Assembly: GCA_964522435.1 (NCBI GenBank)
Contig: CAZFUL010000001.1
Coordinates: 11,612 to 75,611, forward strand
Direction of reading: 5' to 3'
Source of the DNA: an uncultured Gammaproteobacteria bacterium
GTDB lineage: Bacteria; Patescibacteriota; Patescibacteriia; Magasanikbacterales; UBA922
DNA length: 64,000 nt
Of this stretch, positions 11,408-25,813 are shown piece by piece. How positions within the stretch are numbered: the first letter of the stretch is position 1; every line of letters starts with the position of its first letter. The position numbers were made by a program, and so were the translations under genes. Below the pieces are notes generated by a model. The model did no database searches. It was not told where the DNA came from and saw only the letters and a program-made list of their open reading frames with translations.

Positions 11408-12775
11408 TCAACTGTCTTTTACTATAGCACGAATTTGACCAGATAAAAATATGGAGCCGGTAACAAGAAGCAGGTCTTTTGTTTTTTGTTGAGAGCGACT
11501 CCAGGCGAGTGCTTCTGTTGGATTAACAAAGGCTTGTATGCGTGCGTTTGGAAGTTTTTTCTTACACATACGGGCAACGTCAGCAGGAAACGCAACTGCC
11601 CGAAACGGGTTCATCGTATCTCTGGTACAGGCAATACTTTTTGGTTCTAAACGTGCAAGTAATGTAATGAGGGTGGTAATTTTTTTATTTTCCGAAAAAC
11701 AAATAATAAGGTGAAGTTCTTTCCACAATTTGGGTTGTCTATTTTTTATCGAGAGCAGTGTTTCTACGGTTGAACGTATTTTTTCATTGTTATGCGCACC
11801 ATCTACCATAAAAAGAGGGGTGCTGGTCAATAGCTCTAGACGCAACGGCTGGACTGCGTTCTGTAATCCTTTTTGGATTGATGGAAGGGGAATCCCTAAT
11901 TTTTTTGCTGCTTCAATACAGACGAGTGCATTTTCTATTTGATGTGTTCCTGAAACAGGAAGATGGTAGCGTTGTTGTTCATACAGAAAATCAATACCTT
12001 GTAATTCTTGAGTAATGATCTGTGCCTGTTTTAAAGAAATGGCGGTAAAAGAAGCTGCATGTTGTTTGGTATATTCACTTTCAAACATACTGCGAAGATT
12101 TTTTTGTTTTTCTGCAGTAATAACATGACTGTCTTTTTTTATAATGCCTGCTTTTTCATAGGCAATTTTTTCTTTGGTATCTCCGAGAAGGTCAAGATGG
12201 TCGAGTCCGATATTGGTGATAATGGCCACATCAGTATATGGAAGAACATTGGTTGCATCGTATCTTCCACCACAGCCAACTTCTATAACAGCGTAGTCTA
12301 CCTTCTGTTGTGCAAACCAGAGAAATGCAATAGCATGACAAATTTCTAAAAATGTTGGTACGTCATATGGGGCTTGTTGAATACAACGATCAAGAATAGG
12401 TTGCAGTTGTTGTATGAGAGAAACAAATTCTTTTTCACTCATGAATGTATTATTGATACGCCATCGTTCTCGGATAGTACTTGGGTGAGGGGAATAGGTT
12501 GATCCGACCTTGTACCCTGCTGCATGAAGGATGCTATGCATGTAGGCGGTGGTAGAACCTTTGCCGCTTGTTCCGGTAACATGCACATAGTGGGGAATAT
12601 TGTGTTGTGGATTGTTAAGTAAAGACAAAAAATGTCGCATCTGTTTGATGCTTTGGGTACCTTGTGTTGTTCCTGCTTTGCGTTTTTTACGACGAAGGTT
12701 ATTAAAGGATAACACGTAATTGTAGGCATCTTGATAGGTCATAAGAGATATAGGTAATGTTGTAGAGGATAACAA
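11408..12775 (-). CDS. Mur-ligase family protein, FolC-like (folylpolyglutamate/dihydrofolate synthase-like)
   Basis: Has a P-loop 'VTGTSGKGST'. The Mur ligase middle and C-terminal domain architecture is present. Confidence 0.6.
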   Translation of the reverse strand: MLSSTTLPISLMTYQDAYNYVLSFNNLRRKKRKAGTTQGTQSIKQMRHFLSLLNNPQHNIPHYVHVTGTSGKGSTTAYMHSILHAAGYKVGSTYSPHPSTIRERWRINNTFMSEKEFVSLIQQLQPILDRCIQQAPYDVPTFLEICHAIAFLWFAQQKVDYAVIEVGCGGRYDATNVLPYTDVAIITNIGLDHLDLLGDTKEKIAYEKAGIIKKDSHVITAEKQKNLRSMFESEYTKQHAASFTAISLKQAQIITQELQGIDFLYEQQRYHLPVSGTHQIENALVCIEAAKKLGIPLPSIQKGLQNAVQPLRLELLTSTPLFMVDGAHNNEKIRSTVETLLSIKNRQPKLWKELHLIICFSENKKITTLITLLARLEPKSIACTRDTMNPFRAVAFPADVARMCKKKLPNARIQAFVNPTEALAWSRSQQKTKDLLLVTGSIFLSGQIRAIVKDS

Positions 12776-18444: not shown

Positions 18445-20544
18445 ATGAACCTGACCACCCCCATTACACAACTATCTGGTGTTGGCATAACCATGCAAAA
18501 ACGTTTGGCAATGTTAGGTATTCATACCGTAGAAGAGTTGTTATATTATTTTCCCTTTCGCTACGAAGATGTGCGACATGTTGCCTGTATTGACCAGCTG
18601 GTGACGGGGACGCAAGTGCGTATAGAAGCGCAAATTGAGGCTATTGCAAGTCGTCGGGCACGCAAACGCCGTACCTACATTACAGAAGCCGTCGTGTCTG
18701 ATAGTTCTGGGCAATTGCGTGTGGTATGGTTTGGTCAACCGTATATAAGCAAAACCCTAAAAGTAGGGGATAGTGTGGTGCTTTCTGGGGTGGTGAAAGA
18801 AGACATGATTGGTTTGCAGCTGGTATCACCCAGTTATGAAAAAATACGGGCGCAGAAAGAAGAACAGACACTAGCGTCCGGAGAAATTTTTCCTATCTAT
18901 TCTCTTACTGCTGGCATGACCCAAAAGCAGCTGAGAAGCTATGTCAAAGAAGCATTACCGGCAGTTGTTGATATTGAAGAATGGCTTCCAGAAGAGATAC
19001 GAGATCGGGCAGATATTATGCCCTTGGTTGAGGCACTACAGGCAATTCATGTCCCAACGAGCTTGGAAGAACTCCATCATGCTGAGCGTCGATTAAAATT
19101 TGATGAAATATATATATTACAATTACGCGCGGAATTATTGCGTCAATCATTAGCGAGTGTGACGGCCAAGCAAATTATTTTTAAAGAAAAAGAAATAAAA
19201 GACATGGTAGCTGCATTACCATTTACCTTAACCAAAGATCAGAAGGTTGCTGCCTGGAACATATTTACTGATATGCAAGCGGCTCGTCCAATGAACCGGT
19301 TGTTAGAAGGGGACGTTGGTTCTGGAAAAACAGTGGTAGCAGCACTGTGTGCCTATAATACGATATTGAATGGCTATCAGGTCGCCTGCATGGCGCCAAC
19401 AGATATTTTGGCACGGCAGCATTTTCGCACCTTTCAATCCTTATTGCCAGGAGTGTCGATTGCCTTAGTCACGGGGGCGGGGGTTGAATTGTCTGCTCCA
19501 ACAACGAGTGATGTTGCGCTTGCCTTTGATAAGATAAAAACTAAAAAAGGAAAAAAAGACCGTATACGAACCTGGCTGCAAAGCGGAGAGATTTCTTTGG
19601 TTATTGGAACGCATGCATTACTCACAGAAACCGTGCAGTTTCATGAATTGGCTTTTGTTATTGTGGATGAGCAACATCGTTTTGGGGTAGAACAGCGAAA
19701 ACTGTTGAGAGAAAAATCTGGGAGTACGGCTATGCCACATTTTTTAAGTATGACCGCAACCCCGATTCCCAGATCCTTTGCCCTAACTTTGTATGGTGAT
19801 TTGGATGTGTCCTTTATTAAAGAAAAGCCACAAGGGAGAAAAGAGATTTATACGAAATTTGTGCAAGCCCATGAACGGCAAAAAGCCTATGATTTCATTC
19901 GTGGCCAAATAGATACAGGAAAACAGGTGTTTGTGGTCTGTCCTATGATTCACGTAGCTACGGACGGAGCAGAAAAAAAATCTGTTATGGCAGAGTACGA
20001 AAAACTGTCAACAAAGGTATTTGCTGATAAACGTATTGCGGTGTTGCACGGCAAAATGAAAGCAGAAGAAAAAAAAGAAATCATGCGCGCGTTTAAGGAA
20101 AAAGAACTTGATATTCTGGTATCTACCTCTGTTATTGAGGTTGGTATTGATATTCCAAACGCGAGTGTCATGATGATAGAAGGCGCTGAATCGTTTGGTT
20201 TGGCACAGCTGCATCAATTTCGAGGCCGTGTGGGGCGAAGCGATGCGCAAAGTTATTGTTTTGTCTTAACAGAGAGTGACAGCGATAGCGTGAAAAAACG
20301 ATTAGCGTTTTTTGAACAATGTCATGATGGCTTTGCCTTAGCGGAATTTGATTTAGAAGAACGTGGGCCAGGAGAAGTGTATGGCGTAAACCAAAGTGGC
20401 ATGATGCAGTTTCGACTGGCGTCTATGAAGGATAGAGAGCTTATTGTATTAGCCAGAGAGTTAGCCAAAGATATTGATTTTACGACATATCCCTTACTCA
20501 AAGAAAAGGTACACGAGTGGGAGCAGCGGGTGCATTTGGAATAA
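18445..20544 (+). CDS. recG: ATP-dependent DNA helicase RecG
   Basis: Wedge/OB N-terminus. Helicase motifs 'GDVGSGKTVVA', 'VIVDEQHRFGV', 'QLHQFRGRVGR'. Confidence 0.9.
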   Translation: MNLTTPITQLSGVGITMQKRLAMLGIHTVEELLYYFPFRYEDVRHVACIDQLVTGTQVRIEAQIEAIASRRARKRRTYITEAVVSDSSGQLRVVWFGQPYISKTLKVGDSVVLSGVVKEDMIGLQLVSPSYEKIRAQKEEQTLASGEIFPIYSLTAGMTQKQLRSYVKEALPAVVDIEEWLPEEIRDRADIMPLVEALQAIHVPTSLEELHHAERRLKFDEIYILQLRAELLRQSLASVTAKQIIFKEKEIKDMVAALPFTLTKDQKVAAWNIFTDMQAARPMNRLLEGDVGSGKTVVAALCAYNTILNGYQVACMAPTDILARQHFRTFQSLLPGVSIALVTGAGVELSAPTTSDVALAFDKIKTKKGKKDRIRTWLQSGEISLVIGTHALLTETVQFHELAFVIVDEQHRFGVEQRKLLREKSGSTAMPHFLSMTATPIPRSFALTLYGDLDVSFIKEKPQGRKEIYTKFVQAHERQKAYDFIRGQIDTGKQVFVVCPMIHVATDGAEKKSVMAEYEKLSTKVFADKRIAVLHGKMKAEEKKEIMRAFKEKELDILVSTSVIEVGIDIPNASVMMIEGAESFGLAQLHQFRGRVGRSDAQSYCFVLTESDSDSVKKRLAFFEQCHDGFALAEFDLEERGPGEVYGVNQSGMMQFRLASMKDRELIVLARELAKDIDFTTYPLLKEKVHEWEQRVHLE

Positions 20545-20654
20545 ATAAGAAGATTTTATTTTTACCTATCCCTGCTCAGCATACAAGCACGAAAGCAACT
20601 CGCTTCGGGTGCCAAGATGCACCCTGCGCTGCGACTGCTTTCTTTGCTTGTAGC

Positions 20655-20688
20655 TTTTAGGGGGATAGTATTAATTTTATCCCCCCAG
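20655..20688 (+). terminator. recG intrinsic terminator
   Basis: 'agggggatagtattaattttatccccc' hairpin just after the recG stop. Confidence 0.5.
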
Positions 20689-20693
20689 CCTGA

Positions 20694-20722
20694 TTGACAA
20701 AATAGCCAAAATCGGCTAGGGT
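20694..20722 (+). promoter_or_regulatory. sigma70-like promoter (TTGACA-N17-TAGGGT) with an internal palindrome
   Basis: 'ttgaca aaatagccaaaatcggc tagggt'. The spacer contains the inverted repeat tagcc-aaaat-cggcta. The promoter lies about 90 nt upstream of the island's first ORF. Confidence 0.4.
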
Positions 20723-20812
20723 CACTCGAATCGCTTTTTTTAAAGAAGGCGATTTGGTGGTCTTTCACAACGGAATTTTATATGCCCTTAGGTAGGGCGA
20801 AAGGGGATGATC

Positions 20813-22576
20813 ATGAAAGATTGGAATTGGAAAAAGTTGTCTTTTGTTGGGTCGCTCGTCATCATCGGCCTCACGGCCGTGGCTGGGCTGAGCCTGTTTT
20901 GGCACAACCTGCTCTGGAGCACGGTGTTTCCCGTGCCCTGGGCTGCCTGGATGGCGTCGGCCTTGATCGCCTTTGCGTCGCTCACCTTGCTGTCCTTCGG
21001 TGTTACCGGGACGCCTTTCCTTTTTTTGGCAGAGAAGATCTGCCTGCTGCCTTACAGCAAGGAGCAGACGTCCGAGCGGACCAAAGAGATTGAGCAGATC
21101 GCCGCCATTTTTGCATTCGCATTTTTGGCAGCCTTTTCGCTCAGCATCATTGGGACCAGCAAGTTCTGGTCATACCTGTTTCCAAAGCCATGGCACTGGA
21201 TTCCAGCGGTCGCAACCGCTGGGTTGGTGATTGCGCTTGAAATCATGGTTTTTCGCTCGGTGAAGGCGGGAATGAAGAAACGGATTGCCACCATCGTGAT
21301 GATGGCGTCGTTTCTGACGTTCTGTTTCGCGATCGAGATTATGGACAAGGACATCCTGCGTGAGAAAAAAATCATGCTGGATGAACAAGTTGCTCAAGCG
21401 CAGCATGATCAAGACCGGCGTGTTGCCCAGGCGAAAGAACTGAAAGAAGGAGAAATTCTTCGGCAGTTTGACGCCAAAGTGGCTGAAGCGCAGCAAAGCG
21501 CTGATGCTGCGGGCACACGGGCGCAAGCGGCAAATGCGAATCGGATTGCTGTGGTGACGCAGCAGTTTGAAGCGCAGATCGCGGCCGCAACATTGCACAT
21601 GAACTGTGCTCGGCAGCGGCTGTCGAACTGTTTGCCCGGATCACTCATGAAGCCGGGCAGCACTGAACGCGAAATCGCCGCAGCAGTGCGGCATCGCGAC
21701 GCCGCGGTGAAGCGCTTGGAAGTAGCTCGCAATACCGCGCTCATGAACGCTGGCGTTGCCGCCGGCGGGTCTGAAGGCGAGTCGCCTGCTCTGGCGCAAG
21801 CCCGGCAGGATCGAGACCAAGCCTTGGCCGCGTTGAACGGCCTGAGCAAAGAAGCGTTGCTCTCCGGGAGTGGCAACGTCCCCCTTCGCTTTGACGCGAC
21901 GGACTTTGACGGATTTCAGTCGACCATGAAGGCCTTTGGACGAGTTCTTTGGAACTCCCCGGCGACCTGGCCATGGTTTTTGCTGATGTTCTGCTTTGTC
22001 CTGTCCCTCGAGGCGATTCCTATCATTATGTTGTCCTTGCGCTCCTCTGCCTACCTTCGCTACTTGCTTTCGCAAGAGCCCAGCCTGGATCAGCTCGTGG
22101 CGCATGCCATGAACCTCAAGGTTGCGCAAGTAGACCTTGAGGAGCAGATCCCTGCTTCCGTGTTCAAAGCCGCGATGATGGGCGCGCTGTTTGCCAAACA
22201 GATCGCACAGATCGAGGCCTACCGTGAGCAGCTGGGCCAGGTCTTTGGCATGATCAAGCAAGGAGAGTTCAAGACTTTGCTTGATGTGACTCTGTTTCTC
22301 ATGCCAAGCTATAGCCTGGTAAAAGGTGCTCTCTGCGATATGCAGGTAGGGGGATACACATTCCCCAAGATCTTTTATCTGGATGCGGACATGTTTGATG
22401 GGTACAAGCCGCTTATTGAAGATTGCCTCGTCGATGCAGAAGCGGAGCGTGAGCGAGAAAAGCTCGCGGCTGCCAATCGTCCTGCTGGAGCAAACGGTCA
22501 TGTCCTCCGATCTGCCGGAGGCTTCGATGCCTCTGGTGCTGATGCGGTGAGCCTTTCTGCCGCCCCCGCCACCTGA
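20813..22576 (+). CDS. novel multi-pass membrane protein with a long coiled coil (GC-rich island gene 1)
   Basis: 587-589 aa. The start is the ATG at 20807 or at 20813; 20813 sits 5 nt after an 'aagggga' SD. Five N-terminal hydrophobic helices, a ~150-aa Ala/Gln/Glu-rich heptad-like segment, a sixth helix 'WPWFLLMFCFVLSLEAIPIIMLSL', and a ~180-aa C-terminal soluble region. No known catalytic motif. Confidence 0.6.
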   Translation: MKDWNWKKLSFVGSLVIIGLTAVAGLSLFWHNLLWSTVFPVPWAAWMASALIAFASLTLLSFGVTGTPFLFLAEKICLLPYSKEQTSERTKEIEQIAAIFAFAFLAAFSLSIIGTSKFWSYLFPKPWHWIPAVATAGLVIALEIMVFRSVKAGMKKRIATIVMMASFLTFCFAIEIMDKDILREKKIMLDEQVAQAQHDQDRRVAQAKELKEGEILRQFDAKVAEAQQSADAAGTRAQAANANRIAVVTQQFEAQIAAATLHMNCARQRLSNCLPGSLMKPGSTEREIAAAVRHRDAAVKRLEVARNTALMNAGVAAGGSEGESPALAQARQDRDQALAALNGLSKEALLSGSGNVPLRFDATDFDGFQSTMKAFGRVLWNSPATWPWFLLMFCFVLSLEAIPIIMLSLRSSAYLRYLLSQEPSLDQLVAHAMNLKVAQVDLEEQIPASVFKAAMMGALFAKQIAQIEAYREQLGQVFGMIKQGEFKTLLDVTLFLMPSYSLVKGALCDMQVGGYTFPKIFYLDADMFDGYKPLIEDCLVDAEAEREREKLAAANRPAGANGHVLRSAGGFDASGADAVSLSAAPAT

Positions 22577-22596
22577 AACACCATCCCACCGATTTA

Positions 22597-22670
22597 CGGA
22601 ACACGAACTGCCTTGGGCAACCAGTTCGTGTTCCTTCCCACCCCCTCACATAGGAGGTTTTTTTATTTTA
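22597..22670 (+). terminator. intrinsic terminator(s) after island gene 1
   Basis: 13-bp stem ggaacacgaactg/cagttcgtgttcc, then 'cctcacataggagg' followed by a T-run. Confidence 0.5.
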
Positions 22671-22831
22671 TGCGCATAATATAGGTATTGAGTAACTATT
22701 CTGTCCACCTATCCTACTTGATTTTTTTCATACAATATGTACTATCCTCCTTAACCGCTTGTGTAGAGAAACACAGATCCTCGTACGTTGCTGGCGGCTG
22801 CAAAGATACAGGAGACAAAGGAGCAAAGGCC

Positions 22832-23113
22832 ATGATTGATAAATCACTTGAACAGGTAGAGATCCTTATTTCTGCCATCGAGGCCGTGGGCCTCTCGGTT
22901 GAAAAGATCCTGCGCCGAGGGCAGGTGCATGGTTTTGTCCTGGATAATCAGCCCCCGCAGGGCTACCGCTATGATGAGCTGCTCACCTCCCGGGCACGGG
23001 AGTTGCGTGATGCCAAGAATCTGGGAGACTTCATCACTCGGATGGAGCATCTTCTGGGAACGAGCTACAATGCGGTTTTGAACCGCAATCTCTACATCGT
23101 GGCGTATCGGTAG
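22832..23113 (+). CDS. small paralog A (GYRYD-motif family, island gene 2)
   Basis: 93 aa from the ATG at 22832, preceded by 'aggagcaaagg'. The track ORF begins at 22688 but its N-terminus lies in AT-rich non-coding-looking DNA. Confidence 0.5.
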   Translation: MIDKSLEQVEILISAIEAVGLSVEKILRRGQVHGFVLDNQPPQGYRYDELLTSRARELRDAKNLGDFITRMEHLLGTSYNAVLNRNLYIVAYR

Positions 23114-23236
23114 CAAGGGGGCTTGCATTTTTTGCAAAAGTCTGTAGAATGGCTTCTAACCGCTTGAAACCAACAGAGAGGGAATTCCCAATGTATCTCG
23201 TGTGGCGGTTGCGAGATTGGGAAAAGGGAGAAATTC

Positions 23237-23527
23237 ATGAATTCGGCATACTTGGCGGCTTTGATGGCCGCGGTCAAGGCTTTGGGTAGCAACGCCCGAG
23301 CCTTCTCCGAGAACCCCGACATCGCCGGACTCAAGACCGGCACCAAGGCACCGACTGGGTATCGCTACGACCTCGCTGCTGGGGTCGCGTTCTCGAGCAG
23401 CCCGGAAGCGCAGCGTTTCTTCGACAAGATGAAGACGTTGCTCGGCTCCAGCTTCCTCCCCGTGGTGAAGCGCGAGATTTTCATCACCGAGATCGTCTTC
23501 AAGAAAGAAGAGGCCGCTTCCGCCTAG
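23237..23527 (+). CDS. small paralog B (GYRYD-motif family, island gene 3)
   Basis: 96 aa with SD 'aagggag'. The 'PTGYRYDL...KMKTLLGSSF' core aligns with paralogs A and C. Confidence 0.5.
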   Translation: MNSAYLAALMAAVKALGSNARAFSENPDIAGLKTGTKAPTGYRYDLAAGVAFSSSPEAQRFFDKMKTLLGSSFLPVVKREIFITEIVFKKEEAASA

Positions 23528-23751
23528 GCCTTCGGCGCCACGGGCAAGCAACCCCTCTTGTGCGAAGAGGAACAACCAACCAGGTCAACAGTGAGGAGCT
23601 GTTGACACCCACCAACAAAAAGACTCACCTACGCCCTTCGGGCTTCGGTGAGGAAGCGAGGGAAGCTGTTGGTCGCACCAGTGCACGCATCCGCGTTGCC
23701 TGCCAACAGATTCCATTCCAAGGGATAGTAGACATACTGTATCTTGGAATA

Positions 23752-23790
23752 TAAAAAACCTTGCACCAGAACGGTGCAGGGTTTTTTATT
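23752..23790 (+). terminator. intrinsic terminator after paralog B
   Basis: 'aaaaaaccttgcaccagaacggtgcagggtttttt'. Confidence 0.6.
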
Positions 23791-23913
23791 GCGCTTGATT
23801 TTTTTTTCTAACTTGTTTAGTATGAGCTACAACCGTTCTACCAAAGGAGTACCACGTTGCTATTGATGACTTGAACGGGCGTCACAATGGCAGTACGCTC
23901 TGAGGAGAGAAAA

Positions 23914-24210
23914 ATGTCAGGCGATCTCATCGATCAAATTGCGCGCCTCATTGCCGCGCTCGAGGCTTTTCAGCTGACTCCGGATCAGGTGATCCGTCAA
24001 ACGGACATCACCGGGTTCGAGGTCGGGGAGCGGGTGCCAGCGGGCTATTACTGGAATGCGATTCGGCATCGTGCCCAGGCGCAGGAGTTGAAGGACGCGC
24101 AAGGGGTACCCGCGTTCCAGATTCGGATGGAAGACCTCTTGAAGCACGACTACCAGTCTGTGGTTGAGGGGAAGCTCTTCATCAAGGCCGTCATTCGCCT
24201 GCGTGGGTGA
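23914..24210 (+). CDS. small paralog C (GYRYD-motif family, island gene 4)
   Basis: 98 aa from the ATG at 23914, which has the strong SD 'gaggagag' 5 nt upstream. The track start at 23887 is probably too far upstream. Core 'PAGYYWNAI...RMEDLLKHDY'. Confidence 0.5.
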   Translation: MSGDLIDQIARLIAALEAFQLTPDQVIRQTDITGFEVGERVPAGYYWNAIRHRAQAQELKDAQGVPAFQIRMEDLLKHDYQSVVEGKLFIKAVIRLRG

Positions 24211-24329
24211 CACATCCAACAAACAAGACCTGCCTGCTGGCAGGGAAGTGAGGGAAACTGTTGCTTGAAGGAGGTAAGCAACAGATCCCATTCAAGAATA
24301 GAGTATGTGAAAATAGTCTGTTGTTGAAT

Positions 24330-24365
24330 AAAAAAAATCCCGACTCAGTCGAGGATTTTTTTGTT
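24330..24365 (+). terminator. intrinsic terminator after paralog C; right edge of the island
   Basis: 'aaaaaaaatcccgactcagtcgaggattttttt'. Confidence 0.55.
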
Positions 24366-24469
24366 TATGAAGGGATGCCGGCAGCGTCAGTCAACAAATA
24401 GTTGACCTCGGCTGCCAGACATCATGCCCACATCATCGTGTCAGTTTTTTCCTCCGGTTGGTGCCACTT

Positions 24470-25813
24470 TTAACCGGTATGTTTAATTAACTCAGCAATA
24501 TTTTTTACCTGAAGGACGGTTGCTTTTGTTTTGGTCTTGGTAGCATTGCGTACTGTGGTAATGACTCGTTGTATGCCTAAGGCTTCGCATTCTTTTATGC
24601 GTTTTTCCAAAAAGCGTACGGAACGAATTTCTCCACCCAACCCTACTTCGCCAAATACCGCCAGGTCATTGCCTAACACTTTATCTTTATATGCGCTCGC
24701 AATGGCTAAACAGACTGCCAAATCAACACTGGGTTCTTGGGCTTTAATACCACCAACAATATTGACGTGCACGTCATATTGCCCCAACGTTAATCCCGCT
24801 CGTTTTTCTAATACGGCAATTAACACGTGTAGGCGGTTTAAATCAAAGCCACTGGCTTTACGCACGGGATAACCAAAGCTGGTTTTATTTACTAAGGCTT
24901 GTACTTCTACCAACAAGGGGCGAGAACCTTCCATCAAGCAGGTAACCACTGAGCCAGGCATTGCTTCTCCTCGTTCAGAAAGAAGGAGGGCAGAAGGGTT
25001 GGCAATTTGATGCAAGCCGGCCTCGTCCATATCAAACATGCCAATTTCATCGGTTGAGCCAAAACGATTTTTTACCGAACGAAGTAAGCGGATGTTATGA
25101 TAGCGATCACCTTCTAAATATAAAACCGTATCAACCAAATGTTCTAAGGTGCGTGGTCCTGCCACAGCGCCATCTTTTGTCACATGACCAATAAGAAGAA
25201 TGGCGGTTTGTTGTTCTTTTGCTGCGCCTAATAACTTTGCTGCGCAGGCGCGAATTTGAGACACATTGCCAGGTTCTCCCATAACCTCATCAGAGAAAAT
25301 GGTTTGAATAGAATCAACAATGGCGAGCGTTGGTTGTTCTTTTTTTATGGTGGCAATAATGCGTTCAACAGAGGTTTCATTACTCAACAGTAAGGTAGAG
25401 GTTTTTTTGTGTATGCGATCAGCACGTAATTTTATCTGTCCAATAGATTCTTCTCCAGATAAGTACAATGTTTTTGGAATAGCAAGCGCCATTTGTAACG
25501 AAAGGGTGGATTTTCCAATCCCAGGTTCTCCACCTAAGAGAATAAAACTCCCCGGAACAATGCCACCACCAAGAACACGATTGAGTTCTTCAATATTGGT
25601 TGAGACGCGGTTGACACTGTTGGTATCAATATCTTGTAGGGCAGTTGTTTTTGCGGTTGGATAGGCAGCGAGATCCGTTTGTTGCTTATGCACCGCAGTG
25701 ACTTGTTCTTTTATCGTTCCCCATTTACCACAAGTTAAACAACGGCCAGACCATTTTATATACTGGGCGTCACAATGATCGCAGACAAAAAGAGTGTCTA
25801 TTTTTTTATTCAT
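24470..25813 (-). CDS. radA: DNA repair protein RadA/Sms
   Basis: N-terminal zinc finger 'CDHCDAQYIKWSGRCLTCGKWG', Walker A 'GEPGIGKSTL', KNRFG motif, Lon-like C-terminus. Confidence 0.9.
   Translation of the reverse strand: MNKKIDTLFVCDHCDAQYIKWSGRCLTCGKWGTIKEQVTAVHKQQTDLAAYPTAKTTALQDIDTNSVNRVSTNIEELNRVLGGGIVPGSFILLGGEPGIGKSTLSLQMALAIPKTLYLSGEESIGQIKLRADRIHKKTSTLLLSNETSVERIIATIKKEQPTLAIVDSIQTIFSDEVMGEPGNVSQIRACAAKLLGAAKEQQTAILLIGHVTKDGAVAGPRTLEHLVDTVLYLEGDRYHNIRLLRSVKNRFGSTDEIGMFDMDEAGLHQIANPSALLLSERGEAMPGSVVTCLMEGSRPLLVEVQALVNKTSFGYPVRKASGFDLNRLHVLIAVLEKRAGLTLGQYDVHVNIVGGIKAQEPSVDLAVCLAIASAYKDKVLGNDLAVFGEVGLGGEIRSVRFLEKRIKECEALGIQRVITTVRNATKTKTKATVLQVKNIAELIKHTG

Follow-up and report, generated by a model that had tools for sequence, protein, structure and literature searches.

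A GC-rich recG-radA islet in a Candidatus Magasanikbacteria genome carries three diverged paralogs of a new orphan family

The recG-radA islet and its origin

In a genome of Candidatus Magasanikbacteria (Patescibacteria/CPR), the convergent housekeeping genes recG and radA enclose four further genes, encoding a membrane/coiled-coil protein and three small proteins, here termed s1, s2, and s3. Coordinates are those of the window, i.e., the whole 64-kb stretch of DNA that was analyzed.

18445-20544, plus strand: recG, flanking the islet
20545-24469, no strand assigned: GC-rich islet of 3.9 kb, in all likelihood foreign, holding the membrane-protein gene and s1, s2, and s3
20813-22576, plus strand: membrane/coiled-coil protein, 587 aa (589 aa if the start is at 20807)
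22832-23113, plus strand: s1, 93 aa, pI 6.7
23237-23527, plus strand: s2, 96 aa, pI 9.4
23914-24210, plus strand: s3, 98 aa, pI 6.1
24470-25813, minus strand: radA, flanking the islet

The original prediction had placed three tandem ORFs here, and all three were present at their positions, as was each peptide segment quoted from them. It had overlooked the compositionally foreign four-gene islet between recG and radA.

The coding sequences of the islet have GC3 values of 0.62-0.81, versus a mean of 0.315 ± 0.044 for host genes, and no other high-GC segment occurs in the window. The flanks consist of housekeeping genes (dprA, pth, der, LCP, tRNA-Arg, and recG; then radA, a GDSL-domain gene, a DsbA-like gene, and clpC), and no phage, integrase, or mobility gene was found near the islet. 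In 27 of the related loci that we fetched, mostly from Magasanikbacteria/Patescibacteria MAGs, recG and radA are likewise convergent neighbors, with a gap between them that ranges from 8 bp to 8.5 kb; in eight independently assembled relatives, GC-rich DNA overlaps this gap. In the related loci, tblastn, hmmsearch, and blastn searches of the gap returned no homologues. The presence of GC-rich orphan cassettes in the radA-recG gap of several relatives suggests a lineage-wide hotspot. We regard it as very probable that the islet is foreign, and we infer that its four genes were transferred as one unit from a GC-richer, unsampled source.

A segment whose GC content departs so sharply from the rest of its contig could also be an assembly chimera, the more so as the locus comes from a single MAG and an independent Logan contig (22482-24076) stops short of the islet junctions. 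However, that contig agrees with the islet at 100% identity over 1.6 kb; a chimeric assembly would require two exact joins within a single intergenic gap, whose flanking genes are neighbors in 27 related loci; and the eight relatives with GC-rich DNA overlapping the same gap were assembled independently.

A family of small cytoplasmic proteins

The claim that s1, s2, and s3 are diverged tandem paralogs was borne out by BLASTP and by frame-specific shuffle z-scores. More specifically, BLASTP matched s1 to s3 (E = 6e-17, 33% identity) and s1 to s2 (E = 2e-10, 25% identity); it returned no match for s2 and s3, a pair that is nevertheless joined via s1 and reaches z = 12.7 against shuffles by Smith-Waterman alignment. 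In the annotated frame, the shuffle z-scores of the three pairs were 16.4, 23.5, and 12.7, and not one of 200 shuffles attained the observed scores in this comparison with shuffled controls, which the original prediction had named as a refuting test. Alignments in all other frames and strands gave z ≤ 5.4. The homology asserted earlier thus stands, and the accompanying figure of 25-30% identity is corrected to 24-32% (MAFFT alignment), with 33% for s1-s3 by BLASTP. In the codon alignment, nucleotide identity was highest at second positions (0.49-0.62), lower at first positions (0.38-0.49), and lowest at third positions (0.33-0.40), as is typical of protein-coding DNA that evolves under purifying selection.

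The other form of artefact, chance ORFs in GC-rich noncoding DNA, might draw on the long antisense ORFs that also occur in the region and on the database records: s2 is represented in the protein collection by a Logan assembly only, lacking an NCBI source, and the NCBI entry for the membrane protein has only 411 aa. In contrast, similarity confined to one frame (z = 12.7-23.5 versus ≤5.4 elsewhere) and the coding pattern of codon positions speak against chance ORFs, and a GC3 of 0.73 in the N-terminal transmembrane part supports the long form of the membrane protein. Taking chance ORFs and chimeric assembly together, we consider an artefact extremely improbable, and the three small genes are almost certainly real paralogs. 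For s3, an alternative start at 23887 is possible, with a Shine-Dalgarno (SD) sequence only at the ATG at 23914. No further copies were found elsewhere in the window.

Saturated third codon positions together with 24-32% identity mean that the family must be old, and, because GC3 has not shifted toward that of the host, that the duplications predate the acquisition.

The MAFFT alignment contains 14 invariant columns (M1, L12, A15, A18, G34, P42, G44, Y45, F67, M71, L74, L75, V82, and I89) and a central motif, PxGY[RY][YW][DN]. All invariant residues are hydrophobic or turn residues and no polar residue is conserved, so the three proteins are most likely non-enzymatic binding modules. AlphaFold2 (AF2) modeling built on the three sequences gave two confident models out of five (s1: pLDDT 82.7, pTM 0.75), with the predicted order alpha-alpha-beta-loop(PxGYRYD)-alpha-alpha-beta. 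This fairly confident model had no structural neighbor, and a BFVD fold search was also empty; the predicted fold may therefore be new. Hydropathy is low (GRAVY −0.21 to 0.07), and no signal-peptide-like N terminus is visible in the three sequences. Accordingly, s1, s2, and s3 are small cytoplasmic alpha/beta proteins of a previously unseen family, and they probably act as non-enzymatic binding proteins that share one core but have diversified at the surface. We also considered that they might be copies of a domain of the membrane protein, which was ruled out by an hmmsearch score of just 4.9 bits, i.e., nothing.

That all three ancient paralogs have been kept intact suggests nonredundant roles, and they could form a hetero-oligomeric structural or exported complex, comparable to WXG100 pairs, with the membrane protein as anchor or exporter. 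Such an arrangement would suit their length of ~95 aa and the conserved motif in their central loop, and their C-terminal beta strand might pair from one subunit to the next. However, there was no Pfam match to WXG100 (PF06013) or any other family, the motif is PxGY[RY][YW] rather than WxG, and the predicted fold contains beta strands rather than a helical hairpin. Moreover, signal peptides are absent, and no secretion component was matched in Pfam among the islet proteins and ten flanking proteins. We therefore judge a hetero-oligomeric complex to be highly unlikely.

The original prediction could place the small proteins in no recognizable family, and we likewise found no homologue outside the locus. 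Each of the four islet proteins forms a singleton cluster. Against 5.8 billion clusters, word-indexed searches with the three-sequence profile, and with the membrane protein either whole or without its coiled coil, returned self-matches only. An exhaustive hmmsearch of 1.84 billion representatives with the profile gave self-matches and four extra matches to giant repeat proteins of the DUF11/MucBP-like type, which were rejected because their scores are sums of ~6-bit contributions from the PxGY motif or from a short helix. Scans of IMG/VR and JGI metagenomes with the profile, the membrane protein, and a 3'UTR hairpin pattern found nothing, and neither did a sequence search of the PDB. The small proteins had no match at E ≤ 1 in Pfam, NCBIfam, or PADLOC, and a single stray match in PHROGs (E = 0.039, 30 residues, a 'lipoprotein' family). 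A tblastn search of GenBank phages and PLSDB plasmids yielded a single match, to a Streptomyces plasmid (E = 0.4), which was rejected because it lies antisense to an annotated CDS. A match of a family profile to a known single-copy housekeeping family, the other outcome named beforehand as refuting, was not seen in the profile searches. The three proteins thus constitute a genuine new orphan family, which is known from one genome and is invisible in about 15 billion public proteins. For a family that is old, this points to an unsampled gene reservoir, such as CPR phages, plasmids, or their hosts.

Expression signals and conserved untranslated regions

20694-20737, plus strand: promoter-like site, TTGACA-N17-TAGGGT, for the membrane-protein gene, where a 5' hairpin, AATCGCTTT..., also begins
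22598-22666, plus strand: likely terminator of the membrane-protein gene, a 13-bp hairpin (GGAACACGAACTG/CAGTTCGTGTTCC) followed by a T-run, read from the sequence
22718-22761, plus strand: s1 promoter, TTGATT-N16-TACTAT, with conserved leader box AACCGCTTG
23113-23133, plus strand: weak terminator after s1, GCAAGGGGGCTTGC and a T-run, 5-bp stem
23145-23166, plus strand: s2 -10 box, TAGAAT, with leader box AACCGCTTG and a poor -35
23600-23789, plus strand: structured 3'UTR of s2, with a CA-rich box, hairpins A, B, and C, and a bidirectional terminator (23751-23789)
23795-23839, plus strand: s3 promoter, TTGATT-N17-TAGTAT, with leader box AACCGTTCT
24211-24363, plus strand: structured 3'UTR of s3, repeating the hairpin series of the s2 3'UTR, with a bidirectional terminator (24330-24363)

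As had been proposed, each small gene has expression signals of its own, comprising an SD sequence (AAGGAG for s1, AAGGGAG for s2, and GAGGAG for s3, located 6-8 nt 5' of the ATG), a -10 box, and a terminator. The accompanying claim of a promoter-like box for every gene holds for s1 and s3 (TTGATT-N16/17-TAnTAT) and in part for s2, which has a good -10 box but a poor -35. The terminators of s2 and s3 are strong and bidirectional, that of s1 is weak, and the one at 24330-24363 probably also serves radA. The promoter-like site of the membrane-protein gene was read in the sequence and matched by regular expression, and the 5' leader of that gene (20727-20826) gave a folding z-score of −4.4. By eye, the membrane-protein gene and the small genes seemed to share flank boxes; at z of at most 2.7, this impression was unsupported.

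The original prediction had also overlooked the untranslated flanks of the small genes, which are better kept at the DNA level than the coding sequences. The 3'UTRs of s2 and s3 are homologous (DNA z = 6.3) and strongly folded (z = −7.3 and −6.8, respectively), and they share 39 consensus pairs, 8 of which show compensatory double changes; hairpin B of s2 reads GAGGGAA-CUGUUG...CAACAG-AUUCC. The upstream regions are also similar at the DNA level (s1-s2, z = 5.5; s1-s3, z = 3.8), whereas the coding sequences gave lower values (z = −0.7 to 3.3). The 5'UTRs of the small genes had no significant structure (z between −0.2 and 0.8). Hence, untranslated parts of the small genes are constrained, and their suggested role lies in coordinated expression and/or stable mRNAs.

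Rfam 15 identified no known RNA family in the islet at gathering score, and its only matches at that score in the window were two tRNAs; a subthreshold match to Thr_leader (34.4 bits versus 55) fell on hairpin C and the terminator. We rejected integron attC sites as an explanation of the hairpins, because their arms are GTTG...CAAC rather than RYYYAAC...GTTRRRY and there is no integrase.

The membrane protein and possible roles of the module

Hydropathy analysis divides the membrane protein into five N-terminal transmembrane (TM) segments, a helical/coiled-coil region of ~200 aa, a sixth TM segment (residues 388-412), and a C-terminal helical domain of 175 aa. The positive-inside rule, applied to these hydropathy segments, puts the C-terminal domain in the cytoplasm, the compartment in which the small proteins would also lie. 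Residues 88-411 match positions 7-283 of the 297 positions of the DUF4407 profile (PF14362) collinearly, with E = 5.4e-5 and 23.1 bits, below the gathering cut-off of 31.3. Remote homology to DUF4407 is possible on this sequence match, and the similarity could also be driven by TM and coiled-coil composition. As DUF4407 is a family without known function, membership would explain nothing, and a literature search for it yielded passing mentions only and nothing informative. For the membrane protein, AF2 run on the single sequence gave an all-helical model that, at pLDDT 46.5, was too poor for a structure search.

For the islet as a whole, we favor, at a probability of roughly 40%, a horizontally acquired accessory module in which the small proteins bind or modulate the membrane protein. 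On this interpretation, a 3.9-kb module comprising the 587-aa protein and s1, s2, and s3 would have been acquired as a unit and landed in the variable recG-radA gap. Each of the four genes forms its own transcription unit, the small genes with a common promoter/leader layout and s2 and s3 with a shared multi-hairpin 3'UTR. The small proteins might then act on the cytoplasmic parts of the membrane protein as modulators, adaptors, or inhibitors, either as alternatives to one another or in cooperation; speculatively, such a module could be of accessory, conflict, or envelope-associated type. Taken by itself, the partnership of the small proteins with the membrane protein is doubtful. The link between them consists of adjacency and shared foreign composition, and separate promoters and terminators would fit functionally independent genes equally well. 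Our best guess at the function of the small proteins is accordingly held at low confidence.

The original prediction had offered immunity or antitoxin arrays, modulators, and adaptors as readings of the tandem paralogs; these gained no support from the adjoining membrane protein, in which Pfam, NCBIfam, and PADLOC revealed neither a toxin nor a defence domain. If they formed an immunity or antitoxin array, s1, s2, and s3 would neutralize a toxic membrane protein or the toxins of competitors, in keeping with tandem diverged small paralogs adjoining a large membrane protein, a retained hydrophobic core with varying surfaces, and a context of foreign DNA. However, toxin-antitoxin and toxin-immunity pairs are normally cotranscribed and tightly spaced, and the small genes are monocistronic, with spacers of 123-386 bp and terminators between them. 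These spacers contain structured UTRs and are free of remnants of orphan toxin C-terminal domains, s1, s2, and s3 have no DNA-binding antitoxin domain, and searches of the same three databases for a toxin, trafficking, or defence domain were negative. An immunity or antitoxin array is thus quite unlikely.

Somewhat unlikely, too, is that an unsampled mobile element, such as a CPR phage or plasmid, supplied the islet with independent, moron-like cargo, with each small gene autonomous (e.g., in anti-defence, host takeover, or regulation) and without a tie to the membrane protein. This would agree with an SD sequence, a -10 box, and a terminator for each gene, with the deviant composition, and with the complete orphan status of the small proteins, which is typical of phage accessory genes; deep divergence around a conserved core would also fit arms-race proteins. 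Against it stand the housekeeping flanks, which have no phage, integrase, or mobility gene nearby, and the phage searches, in which PHROGs gave one marginal match (E = 0.039) and BFVD, IMG/VR, and GenBank phages were empty. In addition, the retention of three deeply diverged paralogs with a membrane-protein gene in a compact islet suggests coinheritance.

We also entertain, as an improbable reading, a self-contained RNA-protein module of an undescribed kind, together with an undescribed route of gene capture in CPR bacteria. Here, a new fold in three specialized copies would operate with a DUF4407-like membrane protein, and the mRNAs would carry a conserved 5' box together with a multi-hairpin 3'UTR, which is better kept than the coding DNA and might be bound by the small proteins or act as a 3'UTR-derived RNA. 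CPR bacteria are naturally DNA-scavenging. Across Magasanikbacteria, the radA-recG gap repeatedly contains GC-rich orphan cassettes, with integrases absent in the stretches examined, which hints at such a capture route, one that might depend, for example, on transformation and recombination.

If the accessory-module reading is true, the islet would be a compact case of ultra-small CPR bacteria acquiring and keeping foreign accessory modules. As it stands, the finding is a well-defined orphan family, without an assigned function and from one genome, that opens no long-standing question by itself.

Several known systems invite comparison. Hendrix and colleagues reportedly described morons as autonomous promoter-gene-terminator units in prophages. 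Like morons, the islet genes have their own SD sequences, -10 boxes, and factor-independent terminators, and a deviant base composition (GC3 of 0.65-0.81 versus 0.32 in the host), with promoter-like sites at 22718 and 23795 and a -10 box only at 23145; unlike morons, they have no prophage or mobile-element context and resemble no phage protein or fold. With polymorphic-toxin immunity arrays and type II antitoxins, they have in common diverged cytoplasmic paralogs, a conserved core, and a location in acquired DNA, and they differ in having no toxin or antitoxin domain, no operon, and long structured spacers with terminators. WXG100/Esx proteins resemble s1, s2, and s3 in length (~95-100 residues), in tandem paralogy, and in an aromatic-Gly motif in the central loop, whereas the PxGY[RY][YW][DN] form of that motif, the two predicted beta strands, and the lack of a PF06013 match set the small proteins apart. 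Finally, compared with DUF4407 proteins, the membrane protein adds two N-terminal TM segments and a C-terminal domain of 175 aa, but it shares with them, in collinear order, N-terminal TM segments, a long helical/coiled-coil region, and a further TM segment.

Three small paralogous genes between recG and radA

The three small genes (s1, s2, and s3) lie with a large gene in a GC-rich islet (20545-24469), arranged as follows:

18445-20544, + strand: recG, left flank of the islet, convergent with radA
20813 (or 20807)-22576, + strand: large gene, ORF of 587/589 aa
22832-23113, + strand: s1, ORF of 93 aa
23237-23527, + strand: s2, ORF of 96 aa
23914-24210, + strand: s3, ORF of 98 aa
24470-25813, - strand: radA, right flank of the islet, convergent with recG

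All neighbors are housekeeping genes, both on the recG side (dprA, pth, der, an LCP protein, tRNA-Arg, and recG) and on the radA side (radA, a GDSL-domain protein, a DsbA-like protein, and clpC). The window RadA shares 54-72% identity with RadA of Candidatus Magasanikbacteria/Patescibacteria MAGs, which places the organism in that group of CPR bacteria.

The original prediction was that the three ORFs are diverged tandem paralogs, and all of the peptide segments quoted for it are present in their translations. Their homology is backed by BLASTP, shuffled controls, and codon-position identity. More specifically, BLASTP linked s1 to s3 (E = 6e-17, 33% identity) and s1 to s2 (E = 2e-10, 25% identity), and returned no match between s2 and s3; for this last pair, Smith-Waterman alignment against 200 shuffles gave z = 12.7, and the other pairs scored z = 16.4 and 23.5. 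The observed scores were reached by 0 of 200 shuffles for all three pairs, i.e., the alignments are clearly better than shuffled controls, and the remaining five frames gave z ≤ 5.4. In a protein-guided codon alignment, nucleotide identity peaked at position 2 (0.49-0.62) and fell to its minimum at position 3 (0.33-0.40), where s1-s3 are saturated. The frame-specific z scores and this codon-position pattern indicate that s1-s3 are translated genes under purifying selection, and they rule out chance ORFs in GC-rich DNA, despite the long ORFs also found on the antisense strand of the islet. The same evidence marks s1-s3 as coding against the very improbable alternative that the locus is an artefact. 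These results demonstrate that s1-s3 are genuine genes that descend from ancient duplications and make up a new family.

Encoded proteins and searches for relatives

The small proteins are not hydrophobic (GRAVY -0.21 to 0.07), and their pI values are 6.7 (s1), 9.4 (s2), and 6.1 (s3). No signal-peptide-like N-terminus is visible in their sequences, and we consider it improbable that they form a hetero-oligomeric or exported complex. All 14 invariant columns (M1, L12, A15, A18, G34, P42, G44, Y45, F67, M71, L74, L75, V82, and I89) hold hydrophobic or turn residues and none is polar or charged, which counts against an enzyme and favors a conserved core with diversified surfaces. From these sequence features, s1-s3 would be non-enzymatic binding proteins. 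AF2 run on the three-sequence alignment (pLDDT 82.7, pTM 0.75; 2 of 5 models confident) predicted helix 2-18, helix 23-27, strand 35-38, a PxGYRYD loop, helix 52-60, helix 64-83, and strand 88-92.

From its N-terminus, the large protein comprises five TM segments, ~200 aa of helical, Ala/Gln-rich sequence, a sixth TM segment (residues 388-412), and a C-terminal helical domain of 175 aa; by the positive-inside rule, its N-terminus and C-terminal domain are predicted to be cytoplasmic and the long helical region to lie outside. Its NCBI-sourced entry in the protein collection has only 411 aa and lacks the five N-terminal TM segments; the DNA that encodes these has a GC3 of 0.73, in support of the long form. 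The NCBI-sourced entries for 20807-22576 and 23237-23527 appear incomplete; s2 has no NCBI source there and comes from a Logan assembly only. The sole database signal of the large protein was a collinear DUF4407 match (E = 5.4e-5) that, at 23.1 bits, is below the cut-off of 31.3 bits. We also considered s1-s3 as copies of part of the large protein and found no relation.

In line with the original prediction, s1-s3 belong to no known family, with no meaningful match in Pfam, NCBIfam, PHROGs, or PADLOC. A family profile searched against 5.8e9 clusters returned only s1-s3 themselves, and an exhaustive HMM scan of 1.84e9 representatives returned s1-s3 plus four giant repeat proteins, which were rejected because they became significant through the sum of numerous ~6-bit hits, each to the PxGY motif or a short helix. 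The large protein, whole or minus its coiled coil, likewise matched only itself. Searches of IMG/VR and JGI metagenome contigs and of PDB sequences yielded nothing, and those of GenBank phages and PLSDB plasmids no real match. Among ~15 billion sequences, each of the four islet proteins is a singleton cluster.

Transcription signals and untranslated flanks

An SD lies 6-8 nt 5' of the ATG in all three small genes. The s1 and s3 promoters read TTGATT-N16/17-TA(C/G)TAT, and s2 has a -10 TAGAAT with a poor -35. About 7 nt 3' of each -10 lies a common box, AACCG(C/T)T(T/C)(G/T), which is probably the transcript 5' end:

22753-22761: box of s1
23158-23166: box of s2
23831-23839: box of s3

The s2 and s3 boxes can pair with a GCGGUU or GAACGG segment ~40 nt downstream; taken whole, the 5'UTRs of the small genes show no significant structure. 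DNA similarity of the upstream regions is significant (z = 5.5 for s1-s2, 3.8 for s1-s3), whereas that of the coding DNA is not (z = -0.7 to 3.3). Two of the flanks are multi-hairpin 3'UTRs:

about 23600-23789: s2 3'UTR, folding z = -7.3 versus shuffles
24211-24363: s3 3'UTR, folding z = -6.8 versus shuffles

These are homologous (DNA z = 6.3, exceeding the 3.3 of the s2-s3 coding sequences) and share a CA-rich box, hairpins A, B (conserved arms GAGGGAA-CUGUUG / CAACAG-AUYCC), and C, and a bidirectional terminator; 8 of the 39 base pairs in their consensus are kept by changes on both sides. No other copy was found in the window or IMG/VR. The s1 terminator is short and weak. A promoter-like site of its own precedes the large gene, whose 5' leader forms a stable hairpin (z = -4.4); downstream come a 13-bp hairpin and a T-run. 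Similarity between the flanks of this gene and those of the small genes is not significant. No Rfam family matched the islet untranslated regions.

Thus, the small genes carry separate transcription-unit signals and conserved, structured untranslated flanks. The original claim of an SD, a promoter-like box, and a terminator for every copy holds, with the poor -35 of s2 and the weak s1 terminator as caveats. Another suggestion, an immunity or antitoxin array, appears unlikely given the monocistronic layout of the small genes and the lack of a detectable toxin.

An imperfect inverted repeat, ACAAGCACGAAAGCA ... TGCTTTCTTTGCTTGT, occurs just 3' of recG (20575-20650), with ~40 nt of GC-rich sequence between its arms and then a GGGGGATA...TATCCCCC hairpin; it had no Rfam match at E ≤ 1.

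Origin of the islet and possible function

The stretch at ~20.7-24.3 kb is the sole high-GC part of the 64-kb window (~40% GC overall). GC3 is 0.65, 0.81, and 0.73 in s1, s2, and s3, respectively, and 0.62-0.73 along the large gene, versus a host mean of 0.315 ± 0.044 (n = 9 genes). The islet is a compositionally foreign four-gene segment in a variable intergenic gap. Since the paralogs are synonymously saturated and their GC3 is still not host-like, the duplications are older than the entry of this DNA into the genome; most likely, all four genes arrived together as one transferred unit. Neither an integrase, transposase, or phage gene among the neighbors scanned nor flanking direct repeats were found. 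That s1-s3 are independent, moron-like cargo of an unsampled mobile element is a possible, if doubtful, explanation.

The locus is known from a single metagenome-assembled genome; an independent Logan assembly (run SRR12762285) matches 22482-24076 at 100% identity, the junctions lying outside its span. In 27 of the fetched related loci (mostly Magasanikbacteria/Patescibacteria MAGs; L numbers below), radA and recG are convergent neighbors separated by 8 bp to 8.5 kb, and tblastn, hmmsearch, and blastn detected no islet homologues in these gaps. Of these loci, 26 were long enough to profile, and a GC-enriched segment overlaps the gap in 8 of them:

L008:11443-12094, islet-like miniature
L011:8181-8833, islet-like miniature
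L028:1053-1651, islet-like miniature
L031:11236-12101, other GC-enriched segment
L056:11323-12863, other GC-enriched segment
L057:10601-12836, other GC-enriched segment
L013:11335-11909, other GC-enriched segment
L053:8506-10612, other GC-enriched segment

The first three look like the islet in miniature: the radA terminator comes first, then a TTGATTTTT...-10 promoter, then an SD and an ORF of 62-77 aa (GC3 0.84-0.91), and last ~200 nt of GC-rich hairpins plus a terminator. These cassettes had no Pfam or Rfam match and no homology to the window islet. Their recurrence makes the gap look like an accumulation site, and possibly a hotspot, for GC-rich orphan cassettes throughout the lineage, and it speaks against a chimeric assembly in the window. 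We regard the locus as real and cleanly delimited.

Two further observations concern these gaps. In L008, the sequence at 11510-11545, GTCATTCTGAGCGAAGCGAAGAATC, appears similar to a short repeat element recurring in CPR genomes. Three related MAGs share a conserved orphan ORF of 127-132 aa, located in the radA-recG gap on the recG strand (MP..S....TAA.AV.ALFKKA.PCR.RELKG.EAACHLTQVG...; no Pfam match for the L013 copy), their gap DNA being 72-87% identical:

L013:11335-11909, region with the orphan ORF
L014:11338-11885, region with the orphan ORF
L015:5755-6299, region with the orphan ORF

As to function, we speculate, with a probability of about 0.3, that s1-s3 act on the membrane protein in an accessory conflict-type or envelope-associated module; the small proteins would engage cytoplasmic parts of their co-transferred partner as modulators, adaptors, or inhibitors. 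The locus is unusual in the following aspects: (i) the lack of any relative among 15 billion proteins, although s1-s3 have diverged deeply from one another; (ii) untranslated regions conserved better than coding DNA; and (iii) a GC-rich radA-recG site recurring across relatives.

Among known systems, DUF4407, itself without known function, was compared with the neighboring large protein only, and the match is sub-threshold. Prophage morons are alike in unit layout and deviant composition, but the islet lacks a phage context. The features tested that define immunity arrays and TA systems are absent from s1-s3, as are those of WXG100. While not demonstrably a new type of system, s1-s3 are a new family that falls into a familiar category, namely, clusters of orphan paralogs that are restricted to a lineage and lie in a small acquired islet.
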